A stretch of 64,000 bases of DNA, taken from the NCBI GenBank assembly GCA_964585385.1, contig CAZPDP010000011.1, positions 1,086 through 65,085 of the forward strand, written 5' to 3'. Positions within the stretch are counted from its first letter, which is position 1, and each line of letters opens with the position of its first letter. Source of the stretch: an uncultured Bacteroidales bacterium. GTDB taxonomy: Bacteria > Bacteroidota > Bacteroidia > Bacteroidales > UBA12077. The notes below the pieces were generated by a model. It ran no database searches and was not told the origin of the DNA. It saw only the letters and a list, made by a program, of their open reading frames with translations. Positions 5,782-62,539 of the stretch are shown piece by piece. The position numbers were made by a program, and so were the translations under genes.

Positions 5782-7767
5782 TTATTTTTTTATCACCTTA
5801 ACTTCTGTCCGTCTGTTCAGGGCCCTTCCTTTCTCAGTTCTGTTAGGAGCTATAGGTTGAGTCTCTCCATATCCCTTATAAGTGAGTCTGTCTTCATCAA
5901 TACCTTTCTCTACAAGATAATTATAAACAGACTGAGCCCGGTTTTCCGAAAGTTCTATGTTGTATTCATTGGTTCCCAGGCTGTCGGTATGGCCTGAGAT
6001 TTCCAGCATAAGCGTGGGGTTTTCTTTCAACAGACCATAAAGCTTGTCAAGCTCAACTTTTGATTCGTCCTTCAGTTCGTACGAATCCAGTTCATAAAAA
6101 ACGTTTCTTAAAATTATTTTTTCACCCTCTTTAATAGGTTTCAAAGGAATATCCTTTTCAAAAGGTTCAGATGCCTCATATTTGCCTTCAAGCTGAAAAT
6201 TATCCGAATAAAACAGATAACCTTTCTTTGAAACATTCATCAAATAATCGTTGTTTGAAGGGATGCTCACAAGGAACTTACCATCGTTTTTATCTGAATA
6301 GGAATCCATCAGAAGGTTTTCATTATTCAGGGAAATTAACTCAAAATGTGCTTTGAGGGGCTCATTTGTTTCTGCATCGTATACACGTCCTCTCATGTAA
6401 GAACTGGAAACAGGCTGGGCAGCCTCAGGAAGCTTAAAAGAGTATATGTCTTTTTCCATACCTTCCTCCCTGTTGCTGGAATAGAAGGCTTCAGTACCAA
6501 GAGTATTTACGATTATTCCCACTTCGTTTTTATGTGTATTTATAGGATAGCCCAGATTTACAGGTTCAGACCACACTGAATCATTCTTTTTCCGTGATTT
6601 AAACAGGTCCAGATTGCCCATTCCCGGCCAGCCATCAGAAGCAAAATACAGGGTTTGATTATCCAGGTGTATAAACGGAGCTATATCTTCACCCGGAGTA
6701 TTTATACTATCCCCAAGATTAACAGGTTTTGTCCATGTACTGTCTGATTTCAATGTAGACATCCAGATGTCTTTCTTCCCTTTGCCTCCTTTTCTCTCGC
6801 TTGCATAATAAAGTGTTCTCCCATCAGGACTAATGGATGGCTGTGACTCCCAATTGATAGTATTTACAGGAGCACCAATATTTTTTGGTTTCGTCCACTG
6901 ATCGTCCTTCTTGTGAGTAACATAAATATCACATCCCCCTTTGCTGTCTTTCCTGTTGCAGGCGCTGAAATACATAGTCTTTCCATCGGCGGACAATGTC
7001 TGGGCTCCTTCGTTATCATCCGAATTTAAAGGATCACCTAAATTCCTTGCTTGCATCCACCCTGTATCGGATTTATAACTTACAAAAAAATCTTCCTGTT
7101 CCAGAGGATTGATGGACATCATCATTCTGCGCCTGGGTTCAGGCAACTCATCCATCTGGCGTTTCAATTCTTCCGCGTTTTCAACAGGTATCAACCTCGT
7201 AAAAACAAGTGTTTTGCCATCTGCTGAGAGGGAGGGCCAGTAATCATTGTATTGGCTGTTCACTGCATATCCAAGGTTTTCAGGCTCAAAATCCACCGGA
7301 TTCTGCTTTTGGTGAATAGCAAAATGGCAGGATTTAATTTTCATCTTAGTCTTATCTCTGAAAATAGGGCCAATACTTTCGTATTCCAGGAAAGTCCGAA
7401 AACTTTTTTTCGCTTCTTCATACCTCCCCTGATTTTGATGCAGGTATCCAATGCTGTAATAAAGCTTGGGGTAATAATCCGGATCAACTCCAATCGCTTT
7501 CCTGTAATTATCCAGGGCCTTACCAGGTTCATTCATTGCTTCATAAACCTGTCCCTTCACAATATAAGCTTCTATAAACTCATCGTCTTTATCTAAAGCT
7601 TTATTCAGAAATTCAAGAGCTTGATCATACTCTCTGATGTTGTAATTTTTCCACGCTTCGTTAAAATATTCAATGGCCTTCTTTGACTTGGTTGAATAGT
7701 CATGCTGAGCTTGAATAATGGACGCTGAGAAAGTGGATAATACCAATAAAATAATCAGTTTTTTCAT
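5782..7767 (-). CDS. PorE-like protein: TPR, PD40 beta-propeller, carboxypeptidase-regulatory-like and OmpA_C peptidoglycan-binding domains
   Basis: TPR helices; repeats 'WPSLSADGKTLVF', 'QPSISPDGRTLYY', 'APFIHLDNQTLYF'; OmpA motifs 'ISGHTDSLG...NIELSENRA' and 'NRRTE'. Confidence 0.85.
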   Translation of the reverse strand: MKKLIILLVLSTFSASIIQAQHDYSTKSKKAIEYFNEAWKNYNIREYDQALEFLNKALDKDDEFIEAYIVKGQVYEAMNEPGKALDNYRKAIGVDPDYYPKLYYSIGYLHQNQGRYEEAKKSFRTFLEYESIGPIFRDKTKMKIKSCHFAIHQKQNPVDFEPENLGYAVNSQYNDYWPSLSADGKTLVFTRLIPVENAEELKRQMDELPEPRRRMMMSINPLEQEDFFVSYKSDTGWMQARNLGDPLNSDDNEGAQTLSADGKTMYFSACNRKDSKGGCDIYVTHKKDDQWTKPKNIGAPVNTINWESQPSISPDGRTLYYASERKGGKGKKDIWMSTLKSDSTWTKPVNLGDSINTPGEDIAPFIHLDNQTLYFASDGWPGMGNLDLFKSRKKNDSVWSEPVNLGYPINTHKNEVGIIVNTLGTEAFYSSNREEGMEKDIYSFKLPEAAQPVSSSYMRGRVYDAETNEPLKAHFELISLNNENLLMDSYSDKNDGKFLVSIPSNNDYLMNVSKKGYLFYSDNFQLEGKYEASEPFEKDIPLKPIKEGEKIILRNVFYELDSYELKDESKVELDKLYGLLKENPTLMLEISGHTDSLGTNEYNIELSENRAQSVYNYLVEKGIDEDRLTYKGYGETQPIAPNRTEKGRALNRRTEVKVIKK

Positions 7768-7803
7768 GTTTTTGCAGGGTAAACTTGTTTCTAAAATCCA
7801 ATT

Positions 7804-8433
7804 CTAAGGTATGTGCATAAATTTGTGTGCCTGGAGCGATACATTCCACCTGGGGTGCATTTTTACATACTCAACAATTTTCGGGATCATCTTCTCATAT
7901 CGGCTCCATTCGGGTTGAAGATAGAGCAGGCAGTCTTTACCTACATGTTGCGATGCCTCTTCAGCCCATGCAATGTCGTCTTCTTTAAACACAATTACTT
8001 TGAGTTCATTGGCTCTCTTATAGAAAACGTTTTCCGGGGGATTATGTTTCTTGGGAGATAAACAAATCCAGTCCCAGATTCCTGTATATTCGCCAGTACC
8101 CGCTGTTTCAAGAAAAGTTTTTACCTGAAGTTGTTTAAGAGACTGACAAAGGGGGTCGAGGTTATAGGAAGAGGGCTCTCCTCCTGTTACCACAATTGAC
8201 TTAGCTGCTGTATTCCTGACAGCCTCCTGAATATCCTGTATTGGAACAAGCGGATGCAGGTCTGCTCTCCAGGAAAGTTTGGTATCACACCAGTGACAAC
8301 CAATATCACACCCCCCGATTCGGATAAAATAAGCAGGTTTTCCTGCATGAAATCCTTCTCCCTGAATGGTATAAAACTGCTCCACAAGCGGTAAATTCAG
8401 CCCGTCTTTATACTCTTCTCTTATCTTTCCCAT
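7804..8433 (-). CDS. queE: 7-carboxy-7-deazaguanine synthase (radical SAM)
   Basis: 'EQFYTIQGEG', CxxxCxxC (GCDIGCHWCDT), 'VTGGEP', C-terminal 'SLQAHK'. Confidence 0.92.
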   Translation of the reverse strand: MGKIREEYKDGLNLPLVEQFYTIQGEGFHAGKPAYFIRIGGCDIGCHWCDTKLSWRADLHPLVPIQDIQEAVRNTAAKSIVVTGGEPSSYNLDPLCQSLKQLQVKTFLETAGTGEYTGIWDWICLSPKKHNPPENVFYKRANELKVIVFKEDDIAWAEEASQHVGKDCLLYLQPEWSRYEKMIPKIVEYVKMHPRWNVSLQAHKFMHIP

Positions 8434-8476
8434 ACCCCATTAATTTAAAGGCAAAATTAGAAGAAAATTCTTCAAG

Positions 8477-8513
8477 AAAAAAAGTCCGCCCTGATGAAAA
8501 ATACAGGACGGAC
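8477..8513 (-). terminator. Intrinsic terminator after the stand-alone trpB
   Basis: A-run, GTCCGCCCTG...CAGGACGGAC imperfect stem. Confidence 0.55.
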
Positions 8514-8536
8514 CATTTTAAATCATCTAAATCATA

Positions 8537-9748
8537 CTAAACCAACTTTCTTCCTATATCTTTATCTCCTCTTCCTGATAAATTGATAATGCTTACCTTG
8601 TCTTTTTTTCCTTTAAGCTGTTTCATAGCAAGCGCAAGTGCATGAGAGGATTCTATTGCAGGGATTATACCTTCCAGTTTCGACAGCATTTGAAAAGCTT
8701 CGACTGCCTCTTTATCAGTTACACAAAAATATTCGGCCCTTCCTGTATCTTTCAGATAAGAGTGCTCCGGTCCGACCCCGGGATAATCAAGCCCGGCAGC
8801 CATAGAGTAAGTATCGACCGGATTCATCTCTTCATCAACAAGACAATAGGAATACGTACCCTGAAATACTACCGGACTACCCATTACCAATGTTGATGCG
8901 GTTTTATACAGTATTTCACCTTCACCTCCCCCTTCAGCAGCATAAATTTTAACATCGGAATCATTCAGAAAGCCTGAAAACAATCCGATAGCATTCGAAC
9001 CACCGCCCACACAGGCAAAGATTGAATCAGGCAGTTTCCCTTCCTCTTTTAGGATCTGACTTTTCGCTTCCTCTCCTATTATACTCTGAAAAAACCTGAC
9101 AATTTCAGGATAAGGATGGGGCCCGACAGCAGAACCCAGCAAATAAAACGCATCGGGATTTTCAACATAATATTCAAGAGCTGCATTGATTGCATCCTTT
9201 AAGGTAGCAGTACCCCGGTCTGTGGTCACCACCTCGGCACCAAGCACCTTCATACGGTAAACATTCATCTCTTGTCTTTTGGCATCTTTTTGCCCCATGA
9301 ACACTTTGCATTTCATGCCCATAAGAGCAGCCGCAGTTGCTGTAGCTACCCCATGCTGGCCGGCACCTGTTTCAGCTATTATTTCTTTTGCACCCATATG
9401 TCGGGCAAGAAGAATCTGACCTACTGTATTGTTAATTTTATGAGCTCCGGTGTGATTCAGGTCCTCTCTCTTTAAATATATTCTGGAGCCAACTTCCCTG
9501 GAAAACCTTTCTGAATAATACAGTGGAGAGGGTCTCCCAATATAATGCGTATTGTAATATTTAAGATCTCTCAGAAAATCTGTATTTCCCTTCAGTTCAT
9601 TAAAAGTTTCTGACAAGGAAATCAGTTTATCTTTTAAAATCTCAGGTACATGTGCTCCTCCATAAGGTCCAAAATACCCGTTTTTATAATTTTCCGGATT
9701 GTATTGTAACAATTTTTCTGATTTCGTATTTGCTATATCTGATTTCAT
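8537..9748 (-). CDS. trpB: Tryptophan synthase beta chain, stand-alone copy (TrpB1-type)
   Basis: PLP lysine motif [51 protein letters not shown]. Confidence 0.92.
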   Translation of the reverse strand: MKSDIANTKSEKLLQYNPENYKNGYFGPYGGAHVPEILKDKLISLSETFNELKGNTDFLRDLKYYNTHYIGRPSPLYYSERFSREVGSRIYLKREDLNHTGAHKINNTVGQILLARHMGAKEIIAETGAGQHGVATATAAALMGMKCKVFMGQKDAKRQEMNVYRMKVLGAEVVTTDRGTATLKDAINAALEYYVENPDAFYLLGSAVGPHPYPEIVRFFQSIIGEEAKSQILKEEGKLPDSIFACVGGGSNAIGLFSGFLNDSDVKIYAAEGGGEGEILYKTASTLVMGSPVVFQGTYSYCLVDEEMNPVDTYSMAAGLDYPGVGPEHSYLKDTGRAEYFCVTDKEAVEAFQMLSKLEGIIPAIESSHALALAMKQLKGKKDKVSIINLSGRGDKDIGRKLV

Positions 9749-9760
9749 CGTTTTCTTGTT

Positions 9761-9868
9761 TTAGTGAATTAAATAATCATGAATGTAAAATCGATTTGCC
9801 TGATAGTTAAAACACCTTTGCCAGGGAAATAAAATTTTTTCCCACCATTGTTGAAGTTGCAGATTCAT
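9761..9868 (-). CDS. Second Trp-rich leader ORF upstream of stand-alone trpB (MNLQLQQWWEKILFPWQRCFNYQANRFYIHDYLIH)
   Basis: Hand-translated. WW plus a third W; starts 22 nt after the attenuator U-tract and stops 12 nt before the trpB ATG. Confidence 0.6.
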   Translation of the reverse strand: MNLQLQQWWEKILFPWQRCFNYQANRFYIHDYLIH

Positions 9869-9890
9869 TTTTAATTATTTAGTTGTAAAT

Positions 9891-9926
9891 AAAAAAAAAG
9901 CCGCAGGCTTTCACCTGCGGCTTTTT
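9891..9926 (-). terminator. Attenuator terminator in the trpB leader
   Basis: Minus strand reads AAAAAGCCGCAGG-TGAAAG-CCTGCGGC-TTTTTTTTT. Confidence 0.85.
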
Positions 9927-9946
9927 AAAAACATAAATATTTCAGG

Positions 9947-10015
9947 TTAATTGCCTTTCATTAACTTATTATCTTTAAGCCACCACCAGTTTCTATGTAT
10001 AAATCGTATGATCAT
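9947..10015 (-). CDS. trpL: Trp leader peptide (MIIRFIHRNWWWLKDNKLMKGN)
   Basis: Hand-translated. Three consecutive TGG codons. AGGC..ACCTG at the end of the ORF can pair with CAGGT..GCCT of the terminator, forming an antiterminator. Confidence 0.85.
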   Translation of the reverse strand: MIIRFIHRNWWWLKDNKLMKGN

Positions 10016-10034
10016 ATGTATGTATTGAATGGAG

Positions 10035-10042
10035 CAAATATA
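10035..10042 (-). promoter_or_regulatory. Bacteroidota -7 promoter box for the trpB leader
   Basis: TATATTTG on the minus strand matches TAnnTTTG and lies 19 nt before the leader ATG. Confidence 0.6.
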
Positions 10043-10202
10043 AAAATTAAATTGTAAAATAAATCAGGCTGGTAATCAAAATCCATATCTTTTTGTTATA
10101 TAATATTGTCGTATAATAAAAAGGAGAATTTAAACAATTACAAAGATTTATTATATTCGAGCAATCAAAAAATCAATTTTAAATTAATAAAAGCTAAGTT
10201 TT

Positions 10203-11573
10203 ATGGAAGACATTAAAAAGTATATTGAAGACAATAAGCAGCGCTTTTTGGATGAGCTTTTTGATCTCATCAGAATTCCCTCAATCAGTTCAGAAAAAGA
10301 ACACAAGGAAGACATGACAAAAGCTGCTGAAAATCTCAAACAAAAATTACTGGATGCCGGCGCTGAGAAGGCAGAAGTTATGCCAACCGATGGCAATCCT
10401 GTCATTTATGCAGAGAAAATAATGGATCAGAACAAACCTACTGTATTAGTATACGGACACTATGACGTAATGCCTGTGGATCCTATCGAAAAATGGGAAT
10501 CTCAGCCTTTTGAACCTGAAATAAGAGACGGTAAAATTTATGCAAGAGGAGCAGACGATGACAAAGGCCAGTCATTCATGCACGTCAAAGCATTTGAATA
10601 CCTAGTAAAATCAGGCAAGCTGGATATCAATATCAAATTCATGATAGAAGGGGAAGAAGAAATTGGCTCCCCAAGCCTTGGCAAATTCTGCGAACAAAAC
10701 AAAGAAATGCTGAAAGCCGATACAATATTGGTTTCTGATACCAGCATGCTGGCAAAGGATGTACCATCCATCACCACAGGATTAAGAGGACTTGCATACA
10801 TGGAAGTAGAAGTTACAGGCCCCAATAAAGACCTTCACTCTGGTTTGTTTGGCGGTGCAGTAGCCAATCCGGCCAATGTACTTTCAGAAATGATTGCCAA
10901 ACTAACAGATGAAAACAACCACATCACTATACCCGGTTTCTATGATGACGTGCTGGAAGCTTCTGAAGAAGAAAGAAAAGAGATGAATAAGGCGCCATTT
11001 GACCTTGAAAAATATAAAAAAGCAATCGACGTCGAAGAAGTACACGGTGAAAAGGGTTATACCACTCTTGAAAGAACCGGTATCCGCCCATCATTAGATG
11101 TTAACGGAATGTGGAGCGGTTACCAGGGAGAAGGAGCTAAAACAGTTCTACCTTCCACCGCAGGTGCTAAAATTTCTATGAGACTTGTTCCCAACCAGGA
11201 ATGGAAAAAAATAAGCCAGCTTTTCGAAGATTATTTTAAATCCCTTGCACCCAAATCCGTCAAGGTAAGTGTGAAAGCTCTGCACGGCGGTCAGGGCTAC
11301 GTTTGCCCAATTGATCTCCCAGCCTATAAAGCTGCAAGCATGGCCATGGAGGAAACACTGGGGAAAAAGCCTGTTCCCTACCGAAGTGGAGGAAGTATAC
11401 CTATTATAGCAACATTTGATAAGATTCTTGATACAAAAGCAGTGCTTATAGGTTTTGGTCTTGAATCTGATGTAATCCATTCACCAAATGAAAATTATCC
11501 ACTGGAACAGTTCTATAATGGTATTGAAACCATTGCCCGTTTTTATGAAAAGTTTGCAGAAATAAACAAATAA
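10203..11573 (+). CDS. M20/M25/M40 family dipeptidase
   Basis: YGHYDVMP, ARGADDDKG, EGEEEIGS, DLHSG, HSPNE. Confidence 0.9.
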   Translation: MEDIKKYIEDNKQRFLDELFDLIRIPSISSEKEHKEDMTKAAENLKQKLLDAGAEKAEVMPTDGNPVIYAEKIMDQNKPTVLVYGHYDVMPVDPIEKWESQPFEPEIRDGKIYARGADDDKGQSFMHVKAFEYLVKSGKLDINIKFMIEGEEEIGSPSLGKFCEQNKEMLKADTILVSDTSMLAKDVPSITTGLRGLAYMEVEVTGPNKDLHSGLFGGAVANPANVLSEMIAKLTDENNHITIPGFYDDVLEASEEERKEMNKAPFDLEKYKKAIDVEEVHGEKGYTTLERTGIRPSLDVNGMWSGYQGEGAKTVLPSTAGAKISMRLVPNQEWKKISQLFEDYFKSLAPKSVKVSVKALHGGQGYVCPIDLPAYKAASMAMEETLGKKPVPYRSGGSIPIIATFDKILDTKAVLIGFGLESDVIHSPNENYPLEQFYNGIETIARFYEKFAEINK

Positions 11574-41859: not shown

Positions 41860-42222
41860 ATGAATACATTAGCTGTTATCGGATCTTTTATTACCCTGGC
41901 CGGTTCAATATTCCTCCTGCTGGGTTCTATTGGACTTCTGAGGATGCCGGATTGTTTCAACCGAATCCAGGCTGGTACAAAAGCATCTACTCTCGGAACC
42001 ATTTTATCTTTTACCGGTATTTTACTTATCGTTCCCGGTTGGTGGGGAAAATTACTGATATTGATTATTTCAGTAATGATAACCAACCCGGTTTCTTCTC
42101 ATGTTTTGGCAAGGGCGTCGCATTATATAAGGGTACCCCTCACAAAAGCACTGTTAGTGGATAAATACCAGGAGGACGAGCAGTATATTTCTGTTGATGA
42201 TCAAAAAAATAAAAAAGAATGA
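41860..42222 (+). CDS. mbxC: MnhG / MbxC
   Basis: 'GLLRMPDCFNRIQAGTKASTLG', 'TNPVSSHVLARA'. Confidence 0.85.
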   Translation: MNTLAVIGSFITLAGSIFLLLGSIGLLRMPDCFNRIQAGTKASTLGTILSFTGILLIVPGWWGKLLILIISVMITNPVSSHVLARASHYIRVPLTKALLVDKYQEDEQYISVDDQKNKKE

Positions 42223-55471: not shown

Positions 55472-55753
55472 AGCATAAAATTTTATGAATAATGCAGGTT
55501 AGTTATACCAACCATGCCAAAGATAAAGAATTAATAAACAAATTGAAACCTGCCTTATACATTTTATCAAGTATTGAGAAACACTAATCAAAATGTACTA
55601 TACAAAAAAAGATCTACAGAGAAAGGACATCCGCAGAATAATGGGTATTGAAAAAAAAAAATAAACAAGTAACCTTATAATTTTAAACTTTTTTTAATCT
55701 TTACTGTTATTCAATAAATTTGATAAAATAGGATGAATTATTCAAATAATTTT

Positions 55754-55761
55754 TATATTTG
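55754..55761 (+). promoter_or_regulatory. -7 promoter box of the trp operon
   Basis: TATATTTG, 19 nt before the first leader ATG. Confidence 0.6.
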
Positions 55762-55780
55762 TACCCATTAAAGAAACCAA

Positions 55781-55837
55781 ATGAAACCCGATACAATTAA
55801 AATATGGTGGCAGCTATTTTTCACGCAAACATCGTGA
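55781..55837 (+). CDS. trpL: trp leader peptide 1 (MKPDTIKIWWQLFFTQTS)
   Basis: Hand-translated. TGG TGG followed by the hairpin CAGCTAT..TCACG/CGTGA..ATAGCTG. Confidence 0.85.
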   Translation: MKPDTIKIWWQLFFTQTS

Positions 55838-55862
55838 GGAAAGATAGCTGTGTAAGAAATTA

Positions 55863-55893
55863 AAAGCTCATCGTACTCACGATGGGCTTTTTT
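55863..55893 (+). terminator. Attenuator terminator 1
   Basis: AAAGCTCATCGT-ACTC-ACGATGGGC-TTTTTT. Its CTCACGATG (55876-55884) is complementary to CATCGTGAG (55830-55838). Confidence 0.85.
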
Positions 55894-55915: not shown

Positions 55916-55975
55916 ATGAATGCATTAAGAAACAACTATTGGTGGTGGTCCAAATTCTGCACAAAAACATTGTGA
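55916..55975 (+). CDS. trpL: trp leader peptide 2 (MNALRNNYWWWSKFCTKTL)
   Basis: Hand-translated. TGG TGG TGG. Confidence 0.85.
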   Translation: MNALRNNYWWWSKFCTKTL

Positions 55976-56003
55976 GATAAAAGGCCCATAGTATCTAAAA
56001 TCC

Positions 56004-56035
56004 AAAGCCCATCGCTCTCACGATGGGCTTTTTTT
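56004..56035 (+). terminator. Attenuator terminator 2
   Basis: AAAGCCCATCG-CTCTCA-CGATGGGC-TTTTTTT. Its CTCACGATG (56017-56025) pairs with CATTGTGAG (55968-55976), with one G-U. Confidence 0.85.
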
Positions 56036-56056
56036 GTACCAAAAAATTTTTAAACC

Positions 56057-57451
56057 ATGACAAAAATCCAAACACACACAAAAACAATGCTGGCCGATAT
56101 AACCACTCCTGTCAGCATCTACCTGAAGCTCAGGGATGAATTTCCAAACTCTGTTTTGCTTGAAAGTTCGGACATACATCACCTGGAGAACCGAAACTCT
56201 TACATATGCCTGGAGCCAAGGGCTGATTTTATTGTGAAAGACAACCAGATAATTCAGAAAACTCCTGAAGAAAAGGAGGAAGTTACATCAATAAATGAAC
56301 GGGAACAGGTGGAACAATCTCTTCAATCCTTTATCCAGTCATTTCAATTCTCCGGTAATGGCAATAACCTCAACGGTTTTTTTGGTTATATGGGATTTGA
56401 AGCCGTTCAATTCTTTGATAAAATCTCCTTCAATCCTGAAAAACCCAAGAATGATTTGCCCGTTATTCGTTACCACCTCTACAAATACATTATCTCCATC
56501 AATCACTTTAAAGACCAGCTAACCATAACCGAAAACCTCCTTCCGGGTGAAGATAGTGAGCTAGACAGGCTGAGCTTTCTTATTAAAAACAAACCCCTTT
56601 CGCATTACCCGTTTCAGCAGAACGGAGCAGAAAAAGCCAGCTTATCGGGTAATGAATTCAAATCGATGGTTTCAAAGGCAAAAGACCATTGCCGACGAGG
56701 AGATGTCTATCAACTGGTTCTATCGCGTAGGTTTTCAAAACCATTTAAAGGGGACGAACTCAACGTTTACCGGGCGCTCAGAAGCGTGAACCCCTCTCCT
56801 TACCTCTTCTATTTTGATTACGGGGACTACAAAATATTTGGATCCTCACCCGAAATGCAGCTCAGAACCCAGGAAGACAAAGCTACAATCAACCCTATTG
56901 CAGGTACATTCAGGAGAACAGGCAACGATGCAGAGGATGAAAAACTGGCTTCAAAGCTGTTACAGGACAGAAAAGAAAACGCTGAACACGTCATGCTGGT
57001 AGATCTGGCCCGGAACGACCTGAGCAAAAACGCTACCAATGTAAAGATCACAAAAATGAAAGAAATCCAGTTCTATTCTCATGTTATTCATATCGTCTCA
57101 AGGGTTGAAGGCAAACTGCAAAATGGCGTTTCACCCCTTAAAATCCTGGGCGATACTTTCCCTGCCGGAACACTGACAGGGGCTCCTAAAAATAAAGCGC
57201 TCCAGTTAATTGACCAGTATGAACCCACTCAACGTGGTTTTTATGGCGGTTGCATTGGATTTATTGGTATCCATGGAGAAACCAACCACGCCATCACTAT
57301 ACGGTCATTCCTAAGTATGAAAAACACACTTTATTACCAGGCTGGAGCTGGTATTACCAATGAATCCGAGGAAGAGAAGGAGTTGGAAGAAGTTGACAAT
57401 AAACTGGAAGCCCTCCGGAATGCCATCGAAATTGCAAGTAAAAACCTATAA
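56057..57451 (+). CDS. trpE: Anthranilate synthase component I
   Basis: 'ADITTPVSIYLKLR', 'LLESS', 'GDVYQLVLS', 'NPSPYLF', 'AEHVMLVDLARND', 'FPAGTLTGAPK'. Confidence 0.95.
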   Translation: MTKIQTHTKTMLADITTPVSIYLKLRDEFPNSVLLESSDIHHLENRNSYICLEPRADFIVKDNQIIQKTPEEKEEVTSINEREQVEQSLQSFIQSFQFSGNGNNLNGFFGYMGFEAVQFFDKISFNPEKPKNDLPVIRYHLYKYIISINHFKDQLTITENLLPGEDSELDRLSFLIKNKPLSHYPFQQNGAEKASLSGNEFKSMVSKAKDHCRRGDVYQLVLSRRFSKPFKGDELNVYRALRSVNPSPYLFYFDYGDYKIFGSSPEMQLRTQEDKATINPIAGTFRRTGNDAEDEKLASKLLQDRKENAEHVMLVDLARNDLSKNATNVKITKMKEIQFYSHVIHIVSRVEGKLQNGVSPLKILGDTFPAGTLTGAPKNKALQLIDQYEPTQRGFYGGCIGFIGIHGETNHAITIRSFLSMKNTLYYQAGAGITNESEEEKELEEVDNKLEALRNAIEIASKNL

Positions 57452-57461
57452 ATAAACAACT

Positions 57462-58112
57462 ATGAAAATACTGGTATTAGATAATTATGATTCATTCACT
57501 TATAACCTGGTTCACATACTCCGTCAAATCACAGGGAATACGGTTCAGGTTGCAAGGAACGATGAGATAAGCCTTGAAGAAATTTCTGTGTATGATAAGA
57601 TTCTTCTTTCTCCGGGACCAGGAATACCGGATGAAGCAGGAATTATGAAAACGCTGATTAAAAAATATGCTTCAAGCAAAAGTATCTTAGGCGTATGCCT
57701 TGGTATGCAGGGAATTGCTGAAGTATTCAACAGCAAAATCTATAACATGCATAAGGTTTATCATGGCATTGAATCTGAGATTTCGATAGTAAAACCGGAT
57801 GATACGCTTTTTATGAATCTTCCAGACACCCTGCCGGTCGGCAGATACCATTCCTGGGCAGTGGAGCCTGATTCCCTTTTAGATGAGCTGGAAGTCACAG
57901 CGGTAGACAAGTACGGCATACCTATGGCTATCAGACATCATGATTTTGATGTAAAAGGAGTCCAGTTTCATCCGGAATCTGTAATGACGCCCCATGGAAA
58001 AAAAATGCTTATGAATTGGATGCAGGCTGAGGACCAGGAAATAGTTCTGCCCCAGACCGACAATTCAAAATACAGCATTAAGAATTTGATCAAGGGCCAT
58101 CTATTTTGTTGA
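57462..58112 (+). CDS. trpG: Anthranilate synthase component II (glutamine amidotransferase)
   Basis: 'DNYDSFTYNL', 'SPGPG', 'GVCLG', 'QFHPES'. Confidence 0.95.
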   Translation: MKILVLDNYDSFTYNLVHILRQITGNTVQVARNDEISLEEISVYDKILLSPGPGIPDEAGIMKTLIKKYASSKSILGVCLGMQGIAEVFNSKIYNMHKVYHGIESEISIVKPDDTLFMNLPDTLPVGRYHSWAVEPDSLLDELEVTAVDKYGIPMAIRHHDFDVKGVQFHPESVMTPHGKKMLMNWMQAEDQEIVLPQTDNSKYSIKNLIKGHLFC

Positions 58113-58130
58113 ATCTAAAGTGCTCAAAAA

Positions 58131-59126
58131 ATGAAACAAGTATTAGAAGATTTATACAGGCAACGATATCTAACCAAAGAAGAATCCAAAGATATTCTAA
58201 AAAACTTTGCCAGCGGGTTATACAACCTGTCTCAAATGGCTTCTTTTCTTACGGTATTCCAGATGAGAAATATCACGGTTGAAGAAATGAACGGTTTCAG
58301 GGAAGCCATGCTGGAATTGTGTATTCCTGTTGATTTTGACGGACACAACACCGTCGATATGGCAGGAACGGGCGGGGACGGAAAGGATACTTTTAATATC
58401 TCCACACTGGCCTCATTCATAGTGGCAGGAGCAGGCGCCAAAGTTATCAAGCATGGCAATTACGGGGTCTCTTCATCATGTGGATCATCCAATGTTCTGG
58501 AATACCTGGGTTATACATTTTCAAATAACCCGGATAAACTCAGGAAAGAACTGGATAAAACAGGATTCTGCTTTTTGCACGCCCCGCTTTTTCATCCTGC
58601 TATGAAGAATGTGGCTCCTGTAAGAAAAGACCTGGGAGTAAAAACCTTTTTCAATATGCTGGGACCCCTGGTTAATCCGGGAAATCCTAAAAACCAGCTA
58701 ATTGGCGTATTCAGTCATGAAGTTGCCCGTTTGTACAATTACATCTATCAGAACCTGGATAAAAATTATTCAATCATCCACAGCATGGATGGATACGATG
58801 AGATTTCACTCACTGGAGATACCAGGCTGGAATCTATGGAAGGGAGCTATATGTTGAAACCCGAAGATTTGGGCTTTGAAAAGCAAGAACCAGAAGGAAT
58901 AAGGGGCGGCAACGATGTTCCTTCCTCTGCTAAAATATTCATCAATATTCTTGAAGGTAAAGGTACTGAAGCTCAAAACCAGGTAGCGCTTGCAAATGCT
59001 GCTGTTGCACTGAAAACGGTTTTCCCGGAAAAAAACCTGGAAGAAACCCTGGAAATGGCGAAAAACTCTCTTCACGGAAAAAAAGCCCTGAAAGTTCTAA
59101 ACCAGTTAATGGAGATGCAGGTATGA
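58131..59126 (+). CDS. trpD: Anthranilate phosphoribosyltransferase
   Basis: 'GTGGDGKDTFNIST', 'KHGN', 'FHPAMK', 'DGYDE'. Confidence 0.96.
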   Translation: MKQVLEDLYRQRYLTKEESKDILKNFASGLYNLSQMASFLTVFQMRNITVEEMNGFREAMLELCIPVDFDGHNTVDMAGTGGDGKDTFNISTLASFIVAGAGAKVIKHGNYGVSSSCGSSNVLEYLGYTFSNNPDKLRKELDKTGFCFLHAPLFHPAMKNVAPVRKDLGVKTFFNMLGPLVNPGNPKNQLIGVFSHEVARLYNYIYQNLDKNYSIIHSMDGYDEISLTGDTRLESMEGSYMLKPEDLGFEKQEPEGIRGGNDVPSSAKIFINILEGKGTEAQNQVALANAAVALKTVFPEKNLEETLEMAKNSLHGKKALKVLNQLMEMQV

Positions 59127-59929
59127 GCAATATTCTGGAAAAAATTAGTCAGAAAAAAAGACAAGAAGTATCATTAAGAAAAAAGCATCAGCTAGTGAGC
59201 ATGCTTGAGAACAGCGCCTATTATTCCCGGCCTGCATTTTCTCTGTCAAATCATATCAAAAATAGCAAGCATGGAATTATAGCTGAATTCAAACGCAAAT
59301 CTCCTTCCAGGGGAATAATCAATCCAAATGCAGATATCCGAAAAACTACAAAAGGGTATATTGAATCAGGAGCTACCGCATTATCTGTGCTTACAGATGA
59401 GTATTTTTTTGGAAGTTCTTTGGAAAATTTAAGCATTGCAAGGGAGGAAAATGCCATCCCCATTCTACAAAAGGACTTTATACTGGATACATTCCAAATT
59501 ATGGAAGCCAAAGCTTACGGGGCTGACGCCATTCTATTAATTGCCAGCATTTTGTCTAAAGAGGAAATTCATAATTTAACCGAATTCGCTGTTTCTCTGG
59601 GAATGGAAACCCTACTTGAAATTCACAACCGGGAGGAAGTCGAAAAAATTCCGAAACAGGTGCATCTCATAGGAATAAACAACAGGAATCTTCAAAATTT
59701 TAATGTGAATCAAGAAAATGCTCCGGAACTTCTCAAACATATTCCGGGCCATTATCTCAAAATAGCCGAAAGCGGAATAAGCCATCCGGAACAAGCATTT
59801 AAATTATTGAATAATGGATTTGACGGACTGCTTATCGGGGAAGCTTTTATGAAACATACAAAACCTGATGAAGCATGCAAAAATTTTATAAAGGAATTAG
59901 GATCTTTTGAGAAACAGAAAAATATATAA
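59123..59929 (+). CDS. trpC: Indole-3-glycerol phosphate synthase
   Basis: 'IAEFKRKSPSRG', 'SVLTDEYFFG', 'GINNRNL', 'AESGI'. Confidence 0.95.
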   Translation: MSNILEKISQKKRQEVSLRKKHQLVSMLENSAYYSRPAFSLSNHIKNSKHGIIAEFKRKSPSRGIINPNADIRKTTKGYIESGATALSVLTDEYFFGSSLENLSIAREENAIPILQKDFILDTFQIMEAKAYGADAILLIASILSKEEIHNLTEFAVSLGMETLLEIHNREEVEKIPKQVHLIGINNRNLQNFNVNQENAPELLKHIPGHYLKIAESGISHPEQAFKLLNNGFDGLLIGEAFMKHTKPDEACKNFIKELGSFEKQKNI

Positions 59930-59951
59930 CGAACCAATCAAAAAAAGGAAA

Positions 59952-60611
59952 ATGAAACTAAAAGTATGTGGACTTACCAATGAAAAAAATATACAGGAGA
60001 TTATTAAAAATGCTCATCCGGATTACCTGGGTTTTCTCTTTTATCCAAACTCTTCCCGTTATGTAATCGGACGCCTGGAGCCGGATGATATATCGAATAT
60101 CTCTGGAAACATACAGAAAACGGGAATATTTGTCAACAGCCCGACTAATTGGGTCATGAAACAGGCCGAAAAATATAATCTTTCAGCTCTTCAGTTGCAC
60201 GGAGAAGAAAGTCCGGCCTATTGTGAAAAATTGAAATCTGAAGGCTTTGAAATCATCAAAGTGTTCAAAATAAAAGATGAAATGGATTTTTTAAGGATGT
60301 CATCCTATCTTTCGGTTGCTGATTCTTTTCTTTTTGATACAGCCGGGAAATTCAGGGGAGGAAATGGTATAAAATTCAACTGGAATATTCTGAAAAGCTA
60401 TAAGCATGATATGCCCTACTTTTTGAGCGGCGGTATCCGGCCCGAAGATGCAAATCCCATAAATACTATTCAGGATCCAAGACTTATCGGGATTGATATA
60501 AACAGCGGTTTCGAAATTCAGCCGGGAATAAAAGATCCGGCAAAAGTTCAATCATTTAAAAACAAGATAAACAATGAACAGCATGGAAAAGCAGCAATAC
60601 ACCGCAGATAA
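59952..60611 (+). CDS. trpF: Phosphoribosylanthranilate isomerase
   Basis: 'MKLKVCGLT', 'QLHGEE', 'FLFDT', 'LSGGI', 'IDINSGFE'. Start placed at the ATG at 59952. Confidence 0.93.
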
Positions 60612-61779
60612 AAACGGGTATTACGGAGCATACGGCGGGGCTTTTATTCCCGAGTTGTTATATCCGAATATTGAGGAATTGAAAAACAGTTATCTTGAAA
60701 TTCTTGCAAGCCCTGATTTTCAAAAAGAATTTCAAAATCTGCTTAAAGATTATGTGGGCAGACCCAGTCCTTTATATTATGCTAAAAATCTTTCCAGGTA
60801 TTATAAAAAGCAAGTTTATCTCAAACGGGAAGATTTAAATCATACCGGCGCTCATAAGATCAACAATACAATAGGACAAATTCTGCTGGCGGACAAACTG
60901 GGCAAAGAGCGAATCATTGCAGAGACCGGTGCAGGCCAGCATGGAGTAGCCACGGCAACAGTCTGCGCCCTGATGAAAAAAGAGTGCGTCGTTTACATGG
61001 GCGAGACCGATATGAAGAGGCAGGAAAGCAATGTAGTTCAAATGCAGCTGTTGGGTGCAAAGGTCATACCCGTAAAATCAGGGAATATGACCCTAAAGGA
61101 TGCTACCAATGAAGCCATAAGAGACTGGATCAACAATCCGGAAAGCCATTACATCATCGGGTCTGTAGTCGGGCCCCACCCTTACCCCGATCTTGTAACC
61201 AGATTGCAGTCGGTTATTGGAAAAGAGCTACCTGCGCAATTGATGGAGAAAACAGGCCAATCCTACCCGGATCACATTGTAGCCTGCGTTGGTGGAGGCA
61301 GTAATGCAGCCGGTATTTTTTACCCGTTCTATGATAATCCTGATGTCCGTTTACATGCCGTGGAAGCCTCCGGCAAAGGAATCAACAGCGGTATGACGGC
61401 TTCCACTATTAAAAAAGGAACAGCCGGCATTCTTCATGGAAGCAGAACGCTTGTTATGCAAAACGAAGACGGACAAATTACCGAGCCTTACTCTATTTCA
61501 GCCGGCCTGGACTACCCGGGTATCGGACCTGCTTATCCGCATCTTTTTGAAACCAGCAGGGTATCCTTTTCAGAAGCAACCGATGATGAAGCCCTGGAAG
61601 CAGCTAAAATCTGCATGCGGGAAGAAGGTATCTTTCCGGCCCTGGAATCAGCTCATGCCCTGGCTGCGCTCAAAAAGATCGAAACAAAGCCTAATGAGAT
61701 TCTTGTGCTGAATCTTTCAGGCAGAGGCAATAAAGATTTGGAAACCTATAAAAAGCATCTTCACAATGAACAGAATTGA
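60574..61779 (+). CDS. trpB: Tryptophan synthase beta chain (operon copy)
   Basis: [42 protein letters not shown]. Confidence 0.96.
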
Positions 61780-62539
61780 TCAACTCTTTCAAACCAAAAA
61801 GCACAATATCTTATCGGTCTTCTTTACGGCAGGGTACCCGACAATAGAAGACAATCCAAAAATTATAAAATCCCTGGCTGAATCCGGGGTCGATATGATT
61901 GAGATAGGTATGCCGTTTTCCGACCCAATGGCTGATGGTCCGGTTATACAGGAAAGCAATAAAAGGGCGCTGGAGAATGGAATGAATCTTTCCCTGCTCT
62001 TTCAGCAATTGCAGGAATTACGAGAAATAACGGACATACCCGTTTTGCTCATGGGTTACCTCAATCCCGTTATTCATTATGGGATAGAAAAATTTTGCAA
62101 CAAATGCAGGGAAGCCGGAATCGATGGAGTTATTCTACCTGACTTACCTGTAGAGGTTTACCAGCAAAGCTATAAAAAGCATTTTGCTGAAAACAACCTG
62201 CACAACATCTTCCTTGTGGCTCCTACCACTAGTAAAGAAAGACTGAATAAAATCCTCCCGGAAGCCGGTGGATTTGTTTACATGGTTTCTTCGAGCTCCA
62301 CCACAGGTACCCAAAAAAATTCCGGCAGTCAGCTTGACTATGTGCACACATTAAAAGAAATCCGCGAGGACATCCCGGTAATGGTAGGGTTCGGGATTAA
62401 CAGCCGGGAAAAATTTCAACAGGTTTGCGAAAAAGCGGAAGGAGGAATTATTGGTTCAGCCTTTGTTAGAGCCCTGGAAAATGAAAACGGAGCTATTGAG
62501 AGCCGGATTCGCTCGTTTATCGAATCGATTAAAACCTGA
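61766..62539 (+). CDS. trpA: Tryptophan synthase alpha chain
   Basis: 'FTAGYP', '[17 protein letters not shown]', 'LMGYLNP', 'VGFGI'. Confidence 0.96.

Follow-up and report, generated by a model that had tools for sequence, protein, structure and literature searches.

The window analysed here, a stretch of 64,000 nucleotides (nt) of contig CAZPDP010000011.1, derives from a member of the Bacteroidota in a microbial-mat metagenome and contains a stand-alone trpB gene (8537..9748, minus strand) that is preceded by two successive short open reading frames (ORFs) with consecutive tryptophan (Trp) codons, referred to as leader 1 and leader 2. The gene encodes a protein of 403 aa that belongs to the TrpB1 type (TIGR00263 score of 534.6 bits vs. 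a cut-off of 392), shares 49% identity with the TrpB of the trpEGDCFBA operon (56057..62539) in the same window, and contains no Trp residue, as do its 39 best homologs. Because it lacks Trp, the enzyme can be made once Trp-tRNA is exhausted; it probably serves in emergency indole salvage, and a Trp-free TrpB fits an emergency enzyme that is still makeable with no Trp left. A preliminary description of this DNA had listed a promoter box, the leaders, a terminator, their spacings and the letters of a hairpin upstream of trpB, and all of these were recovered on the minus strand, at the positions given below. The leader stretch of trpB was identical in contigs of four independent metagenome DNA runs. 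TGGTGG hexamers occur 25 times in the 64-kb window, and six of them lie within the trpB and trpE leaders, which take up less than 1% of it; the Trp codons of the leaders are therefore not due to chance. Another TGGTGG, at 42040, was considered as a third leader and rejected, being located inside the ORF of a membrane protein.

The promoter box of the trpB leader (TATATTTG; 10035..10042, minus strand) corresponds to the Bacteroidota −7 element, which has the consensus TAHHTTTG and a transcription start 4-5 nt downstream (PMC6847099), so that the leader transcript is predicted to start at about 10029-10030. In most trpB orthologs, a TAnnTTTG box is found 8-56 nt (mostly 17-22 nt) 5' of leader 1. 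At the other end of the gene, a terminator (GGTCCGTCCTG..CAGGGCGGAC followed by T7; 8477..8514, minus strand), which was read from the sequence and escapes our terminator scan because of its 10-nt loop, is followed by a new TAATTTTG box for queE (8452..8459, minus strand); trpB is therefore monocistronic.

Leader 1 (MIIRFIHRNWWWLKDNKLMKGN; 9947..10015, minus strand) comprises 22 codons plus TAA, with its ATG at 10015, 19 nt after the promoter box, and includes three consecutive Trp codons (WWW; 9980..9988, minus strand). It is followed by an intrinsic terminator (AAAAAGCCGCAGG-TGAA-AGCCTGCGGC plus T9; 9891..9926, minus strand) with 14 pairs, seven of them G-C, the stem extending over 9926..9895 and the T9 tract over 9899..9891; 22 nt separate this tract from the ATG of leader 2. 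Three terminator-like sites were counted in 9500..10300 vs. 0.2 expected. Orthologous trpB loci were gathered by genome scans, metagenome scans and contig look-ups, the relatives being Bacteroidales metagenome-assembled genomes. Nearly all of these orthologs share three parts, namely the promoter box, a small reading frame containing WW or WWW, and a GCCGCAGG...CCTGCGGC hairpin that is followed by a T-run, and this stage-1 architecture is kept across orthologs from Bacteroidales, Marinilabiliales and Flavobacteriia, including compensatory variants of the terminator stem (CCGTAGG/CCTACGG and GCCATCGG/CCGGTGGC). In 11 close relatives WWW is kept; the stop follows 12-16 codons later, and a further 25-32 nt separate it from the hairpin. 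The identity of leader 1 outside WWW is 14% (in the genomes used for leader 2 below), which fits the pattern of trpL-type leaders, where the regulatory codons alone are conserved; conservation of WWW only, combined with conserved distances between WWW, stop and hairpin, is the signature of a classical attenuator leader. As far as its sequence tells, leader 1 together with its strong terminator forms a transcription attenuator of the ordinary Trp leader-peptide kind.

The predicted 5' strand of an antiterminator, CCUG (9943..9946, minus strand), lies right after the stop codon of leader 1 and would pair with CAGG (9914..9917) in the 5' arm of the terminator, and a YCUG is present at or next to the leader-1 stop in most WIN-clade relatives. 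In the window this pairing is worth −6.1 kcal/mol vs. −23.0 kcal/mol for the terminator, and the stop-adjacent antiterminator is best regarded as putative and weak. The stem GCCGCAGG/CCTGCGGC itself (9900-9921 in the window, minus strand) is near-invariant from Bacteroidales to Flavobacteriia, with a variable loop (L002-L011, L023-L038, L053-L065). Such invariance exceeds the needs of a hairpin, and the CAGG:CCUG antiterminator or a sequence-specific partner may act as the constraint.

The second leader of trpB

Leader 2 (MNLQLQQWWEKILFPWQRCF...; minus strand) extends over 35 codons from its ATG at 9868 to the TAA at 9763..9761, and 12 nt later the trpB ATG follows at 9748. Its codons 1-17 form a conserved core (MNLQLQQWWEKILFPWQ; 9818..9868, minus strand), with Trp codons 8-9 at 9842..9847 and Trp codon 16 at 9821..9823, whereas the tail, consisting of codons 18-35 and the TAA (9761..9817, minus strand), is not conserved. 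The core was compared among 13 lineages whose TrpB identity is 70-80%. In all of them the ORF that follows the terminator begins with M-N-x-Q-h-x-x-W-W-[RKE]-[RKN]-[IM]-x-[FL]-[PL]-W-[RQH], the base after UGG16 is always a C, and the start codon lies seven codons before WW in 8/13. The preliminary description had suggested aligning the upstream regions of orthologous trpB genes for conservation of the WW codons, and this comparison thus gave a positive result in 13 lineages. Leader 2 carries three Trp in 17 codons and precedes a gene of 403 codons that has none. The corresponding DNA motif was found once in the window and gave no match in 100 shuffles, and among 62 loci scanned it was restricted to the region upstream of trpB.

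Several properties of the core indicate coding-type purifying selection. The same residues are spelled by different codons across the 13 lineages (Arg by CGT, CGC, CGA and AGG; Ile by ATT, ATC and ATA), and over codons 10-15 and 17 the mean pairwise difference rises from 0.25 at the first codon position to 0.34 at the second and 0.60 at the third. In the 39 nt on either side of the core, diversity is 0.67-0.70, practically the level of random sequence. Frame 0 is open in 13/13 lineages, the two other frames containing stops in 11/13 and 7/13. Identity outside the Trp residues amounts to 45% in leader 2 vs. 14% in leader 1 of the same genomes. The bias among codon positions, the random flanks and the open frame argue that leader 2 is probably translated and selected as a peptide and does not represent a decayed attenuator, an explanation that the preliminary description had considered and that we abandon here. 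Conservation ends after residue 17-19, and the stop codon lies 2-33 codons past Trp16 in the relatives, its position relative to the trpB ATG ranging between 129 nt upstream and 29 nt downstream.

The absence of a terminator from leader 2, noted in the preliminary description, was confirmed: no terminator-like site was detected by the scan between 9868 and 9749 in the window, and the 13 Bacteroidales-type loci likewise lack one after leader 2, the sole later hairpin with a T-run belonging to a locus from Flavobacteriia (L031). The window does contain a GGGAAA(8 nt)TTTCCC hairpin (9824..9843, minus strand; −7.0 kcal/mol), for which a regulatory role had been envisaged. Its 5' arm GGGAAA (9843..9838) takes in the second and third base of the second Trp codon, and its 3' arm TTTCCC (9829..9824) encodes the Phe-Pro before the third Trp codon. 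The z-score of this hairpin is −0.74, with 43 of 200 shuffles folding equally well, and the z-scores of the 13 orthologous leader-2 segments range between −2.4 and +1.5, their mean being about 0. RNAalifold returned 0 consensus pairs from leader 2 to the trpB start. The hairpin is not conserved and probably just reflects the codons GG-GAA-A and TTT-CCC. An alternative, antiterminator-like structure was not predicted for leader 2 either.

Control of trpB initiation through RNA structure, another possibility raised before, likewise found no support. The energy needed to open the start region of trpB amounts to 1.8-5.4 kcal/mol and showed no consistent change when ribosome footprints on leader 2 were masked, and neither opening energies nor consensus folding revealed a sequestering hairpin of the erm/cat type at the trpB start. 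Bacteroidota ribosomes ignore Shine-Dalgarno sequences. An A at −3, −6, −12 and −13 has been reported as a positive start determinant for Flavobacterium johnsoniae; by this measure trpB has a strong start context of its own, with A at these positions in 10-12 of 13 orthologs, the corresponding counts for the start of leader 2 being 5-8 of 13. The spacers of the 13 loci are composed of 73% A+T, 14% C and 13% G (C/G of about 1.06, range 0.5 to 1.6), and no C-over-G skew resembling a Rho utilization (rut) site was found after leader 2 in these loci, although the preference of Bacteroidota Rho may differ. Rho-dependent termination, also proposed in the preliminary description, becomes somewhat less likely by this measure.

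Tandem Trp leaders upstream of trpE

The trpE gene of the same window (ATG at 56057) is preceded on the plus strand by two complete attenuators. Stage 1 (55754..55893) consists of the same promoter octamer as at trpB (55754..55761), leader A 19 nt further on (MKPDTIKIWWQLFFTQTS, with WW; 55781..55837) and terminator A with its T-run (55862..55891); after 22 nt, stage 2 (55916..56038) begins with leader B (MNALRNNYWWWSKFCTKTL, with WWW; 55916..55975) and continues with terminator B and its T-run (56004..56031). All four trpE relatives examined (L059, L060, L061 and L062; TrpE identity of 62-73%) possess two leader ORFs with WW or WWW, each with a terminator of its own; leader B of L061 starts with GTG. 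Two complete trpE attenuators kept in 4/4 relatives point to tandem Trp attenuators as a trait of the lineage, and the proposal of the preliminary description that this lineage uses two successive Trp leaders agrees with these four trpE pairs as well as with the second trpB ORF in 13 lineages. The 5' strand of the predicted trpE antiterminators, CRUCGUGAGG, overlaps the TGA stop of each trpE leader and is complementary to CUCACGAUG in the 3' arm of the terminator; the predicted antiterminator logic is explicitly much clearer at trpE than at trpB. The operon proteins TrpE, TrpD, TrpC and TrpA contain no Trp residue, and the operon TrpB contains one.

Over 15 bases the trp promoters of the two loci are identical (TAATTTTTATATTTG; 10035-10049, minus strand, and 55747-55761, plus strand), which is more than the 8-nt box. 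A recent duplication of one cassette was considered and rejected, since the leaders of trpB and trpE align only over this 15-nt stretch. The preliminary description had further taken the 19-nt and 22-nt spacings shared by the two loci as a sign of a cassette with the same geometry, a view that does not hold among the relatives: the distance from the box to the ATG is 22-35 nt at trpE, compared with the range given above for trpB, and the T-tract lies 12 to about 110 nt from the second ATG. For ordinary genes of the window, the start codon comes 18-31 nt after a TAHHTTTG box. The equal spacings are thus a coincidence, and the feature that is kept is the order of parts: the promoter lies near leader 1, and the terminator is soon followed by a second leader.

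A Trp leader of Bacteroidetes has been described before as the Bacteroid-trp leader (RF01692), i.e., a short ORF with at least two UGG codons plus a terminator upstream of trpE or trpB, with presumed attenuation (Weinberg et al. 2010, PMC2864571). Leader 1 and both trpE leaders have the same anatomy, the same gene positions and consecutive UGG codons. The RF01692 covariance model scored 28.9 bits for leader B and 24.1 bits for leader A of trpE vs. a gathering threshold of 49; at trpB it gave no match at E-values up to 10, and in 20 related loci no match passed the threshold. No Rfam family passed its gathering threshold in the window or in these 20 loci. By anatomy, stage 1 is a divergent member of the Bacteroid-trp kind; by the Rfam model, it is not. 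The five RF01692 seed sequences that we examined contain a single leader, and neither a tandem arrangement nor a second ORF without a terminator is mentioned there. Matches to other families that appeared at about 9850-10030 under a permissive threshold, including the Firmicute/Fusobacteria 'trpB motif' (RF04312; 21.7 bits vs. 59), were discarded as terminator-driven noise. Sub-threshold matches at 9853-9972 on both strands (STnc40 with 32 bits, L20_leader and His_leader) were all centred on the terminator hairpin.

Possible function of the second leader

We favour, with a confidence that stays somewhat below even, the reading that monocistronic trpB has a regulatory 5' leader here, in which an attenuator is followed by a peptide-dependent, Trp-sensing pause, so that two sensors are arranged in series. 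Transcription would proceed from the Bacteroidota −7 promoter into a leader that carries both sensors. A ribosome that reached the stop of leader 1 would cover CCUG and let the terminator form; a ribosome stalled at WWW, 12-16 codons upstream, would leave CCUG free to pair with CAGG in the 5' arm of the terminator. Stage 2 would act through the translation of leader 2 itself: while the conserved nascent chain (N2...F14-P/L15) occupies the exit tunnel, scarcity of charged tRNA-Trp would lead to slowing or a stall at UGG-C codon 16 and at UGG codons 8-9, the likeliest pause site being the invariant UGG-C of codon 16, which is preceded by Pro or Leu. Such a second Trp check, independent of a terminator, would lower the leak of stage 1. 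As to the output, our preferred guess is that the parked ribosome might protect read-through transcripts from factor-dependent termination or decay. An effect of the pause on the fate of the read-through transcript is favoured in this guess over control of initiation, because the position of the leader-2 stop is free, the trpB start is strong and open, and no shared RNA structure is predicted. Anatomy, conservation of the two stages and coding-type selection on leader 2 are observed, as is the lack of a terminator, shared fold or masked start after it; stalling, its dependence on Trp-tRNA and the output on trpB are what we infer.

Several observations weigh against this proposal of two sensors in series. 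The antiterminator of stage 1 is weak throughout, at −2 to −13 kcal/mol compared with −17 to −24 kcal/mol for the terminator. Conservation is what suggests the translation of leader 2 and the stalling on it, and a plain hunger-codon sensor would need no conserved residues 10-15; an arrest peptide fits these residues equally well, and the Trp residues may then be structural. For the proposed output, the A+T-rich spacers with their balanced C/G ratio (about 1.06) provide no rut-like skew, and in the window leader 2 is separated from a well-translated trpB by only 12 untranslated nt, which leaves little naked RNA for Rho; composition and gap together would argue against a classical Rho site. Finally, five orthologs possess stage 1 only (L005, L024, L009, L034 and L038), and one close relative (L001) lacks both the terminator and leader 2.

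The main rival explanation, in our view an unlikely one, is that leader 2 is a true arrest peptide of the TnaC/PepNL type which senses something other than codon hunger, namely free Trp, indole or stop-codon competition, its Trp residues being structural. With residue 17-19 at the peptidyl-transferase centre, W8/W9 would lie near the constriction, and if indole were the inducer, the leader might form an AND gate (low Trp-tRNA AND indole) for an indole-salvage enzyme. TnaC and PepNL are Trp-linked arrest peptides that act inside the ribosome, TnaC via Rho and without an intrinsic terminator, and they offer precedents both for an arrest at UGA that is relieved by Trp-tRNA read-through (PepNL) and for a response to free Trp (TnaC; PMC11890864). 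Leader 2 resembles them in being a short upstream ORF (uORF) with a conserved amino-acid sequence and a link to tryptophan, and selection acts on its amino acids rather than on the RNA; about 16-18 residues are conserved and conservation ends abruptly after residue 17-19, as expected for a chain inside the tunnel, while the hunger-codon leader 1 shows no comparable conservation. The stop codons are suggestive but weak evidence in the same direction: the first stop is TGA in 8/13 lineages (L035, L056, L002, L058, L003, L065, L054 and L053) vs. 10/46 genes of the window, and a TGA, TGT or TGC codon lies 2-3 codons past Trp16 in 12/13. However, neither place nor identity of the stop is fixed, TAA or TAG being used in 5/13 lineages including the window, where leader 2 ends in TAA, and none of the TGA stops of leader 2 in the 13 lineages is followed by the C of a leaky context. 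By inspection, leader 2 has neither the TnaC pattern W-x3-D-x7-P nor a fixed terminal Pro or stop, and it is not known to resemble any other arrest peptide. TnaC and PepNL stall at a fixed stop and serve catabolic or peptidase genes, whereas the stop of leader 2 varies, its gene is Trp-biosynthetic and its stalling is putative; induction by free Trp would also have the wrong sign for a biosynthetic gene.

Two recoding variants were considered and set aside. For UGA read-through into long frames, the excess is marginal: on average, 22 codons are open before the first stop other than TGA is reached, vs. about 14.5 expected. In L035 and L056 no further stop interrupts the frame after the TGA until close to, or beyond, the trpB ATG. 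A +1 slippage at CCC-UGG was dropped, as 6/13 lineages have CTA, CTG or CTC instead.

Decidedly less probable is a role of leader 2 as a uORF that steers the translation of trpB by ribosome traffic, through re-initiation or occlusion of the start, as altered by stalling at the Trp codons. The 12-nt gap between leader 2 and the trpB ATG in the window would suit such coupling, as would the 32-nt overlap of leader 2 with the trpB start in L053 and the different second ORF of L006 and L028 (Marinilabiliales), which ends in ATGA on the trpB start; moreover, leader genes of Bacteroidetes peak 11-14 bp upstream of structural genes, which has been read as re-initiation (PMC4833913). This geometry is not conserved, however, the stop lying 53-129 nt upstream of trpB in 9/13 lineages, and trpB has its own strong, unstructured start context. 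Coupling would also cut the synthesis of TrpB when Trp is short, the wrong sign for a Trp-free rescue enzyme.

We consider it improbable that leader 2 encodes a small Trp/Arg-rich peptide (17-48 aa) acting in trans, possibly as a feedback signal that the cell produces only while it has Trp. Such a peptide could account for the coding-type conservation of the 17-residue N-terminal segment, which is often followed by Cys, but hardly for a C-terminus that varies by 0 to 31 extra, unconserved residues, nor for an ORF that always resides within the trpB leader on the same transcript, with either neighbour (M20 peptidase or BrkB-like), and was not called as a gene by gene callers in any locus.

Even more improbable is the view of leader 2 as the decayed remnant of a second attenuator, or as an ORF that arose by chance, without present function. 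It would agree with the lack of a terminator in leader 2, with the two complete attenuators at trpE of the same genome and with the orthologs that have no leader 2, but a 51-nt core is kept in 13 lineages between flanks at random-level divergence, third positions vary while the frame is always open, and about 0 occurrences of the motif are expected by chance, so that this explanation is close to refuted. That the functional element is RNA, i.e., the 6-bp GGGAAA/TTTCCC hairpin or another structure in leader 2, can be dismissed almost entirely, even though similar weak hairpins (codons 9-11 with 14-15) can be drawn in several relatives, because the z-scores of the 13 segments average about 0, consensus pairs are lacking and variation is concentrated at third codon positions instead of compensatory pairs.

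The proposed leader with two sensors in series differs from the regulatory systems with which it can be compared. In the E. coli trpL-type attenuator, tandem Trp codons precede an intrinsic terminator, and the position of the ribosome picks terminator or antiterminator. Stage 1 here is seemingly a three-element version, with the 5' strand of the antiterminator at the leader's stop codon; leader 2 departs further, having neither a terminator nor an alternative structure while its peptide is conserved, whereas trpL-type leaders need no peptide conservation. Tandem T-box leaders (in Firmicute trp operons) and tandem riboswitches place two sensors of the same signal in series, which is thought to sharpen the response and lower the leak, but these are RNA sensors that bind tRNA or a ligand, each with a terminator, in contrast to the translated ORFs found here, the second of which lacks a terminator at trpB. 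The Salmonella mgtCBR leader contains two short ORFs (mgtM and mgtP) that sense ATP and Pro-tRNA via alternative stem-loops (PMC3641672); like the trpB leader, it is a long leader with two short ORFs, which in mgtCBR are read out separately for one downstream operon, but the ORFs of the trpB leader both contain Trp codons, and no stem-loop partner was detected for the second. Tandem ORFs in series thus occur here in two forms, conserved with a terminator each at trpE, and with a conserved second ORF that has no terminator at trpB. Our literature searches found no second Trp leader downstream of a classical attenuator that combines a conserved peptide with the lack of a terminator, and leader 2 stands a fair chance of representing a new family of regulatory nascent peptides. 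A bolder version, which we regard as possible but doubtful, would make leader 2 the first member of such a family in Bacteroidota (N-x-Q-h-x-x-W-W-+-+-I-x-F-P/L-W), a sequence-specific staller that controls a Trp-free, indole-salvaging TrpB without a terminator or RNA switch and maybe integrates indole or free Trp with Trp-tRNA. If this were true, the second ORF of Flavobacteriia, which has the same W9...W16 spacing, would be a sister family.

Whereas the Trp leaders of Bacteroidetes were predicted in 2010 as single elements of a hairpin and a terminator, two sensors are stacked here, and the novelty at trpB lies in a second leader whose peptide is conserved and which has no terminator, no alternative fold and no grip on the trpB start. 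Regulatory nascent peptides are, to our knowledge, almost unexplored in Bacteroidota, and a conserved uORF of 17 residues whose input (tryptophan) is obvious and which precedes just one gene would offer a clean entry point. The system also allows one to ask why sensors of the same amino acid are placed in series, be it for leak suppression or for a sharper threshold.

Other arrangements and genomic surroundings

The region between stage 1 and trpB is organized differently in several relatives. Flavobacteriia (L011/L048, L029, L031/L032 and L033) possess a differently spelled second ORF after the terminator (e.g., MKTKRLFRWKITALCWCW), of the form ..[FY]RWKIxxLxW[CQ].., with Trp at positions 9 and 16 and hence the spacing of the Bacteroidales motif. 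In the Marinilabiliales loci L006 and L028, the second ORF comprises 35 codons (MNLQRWP...), its TGA overlapping the trpB ATG. The closest relatives differ strongly from each other. Upstream of trpB, L022 and L054 carry another type of leader 1 (..IIWFYWWCWHKL..), together with a long hairpin that is rich in G+C and has a tract of only four T. L001 (2830-2961) retains that leader (..IWVYGWCWHKL..), 28 nt before trpB. In L002 (about 2640-2740), a run of CCCCTTAGCGG-like repeats is inserted between stage 1 and trpB, and in L010 and L030 this place is taken by an ATG-free spacer of 112-139 nt with CATTTCC repeats and a C/G of about 6, the sole rut-like composition in the set.

The gene order trpB-queE-porE (5782-11573 in the window) is conserved in relatives (L053-L057 and L063-L065), and the neighbourhood in the window carries PorE and genes of the type IX secretion system (T9SS), which together with the TAnnTTTG promoters assign the organism to the Bacteroidota. 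The upstream neighbour in relatives is either a divergent M20 dipeptidase gene or a co-directional BrkB-like gene, and leader 2 accompanies trpB in both settings.

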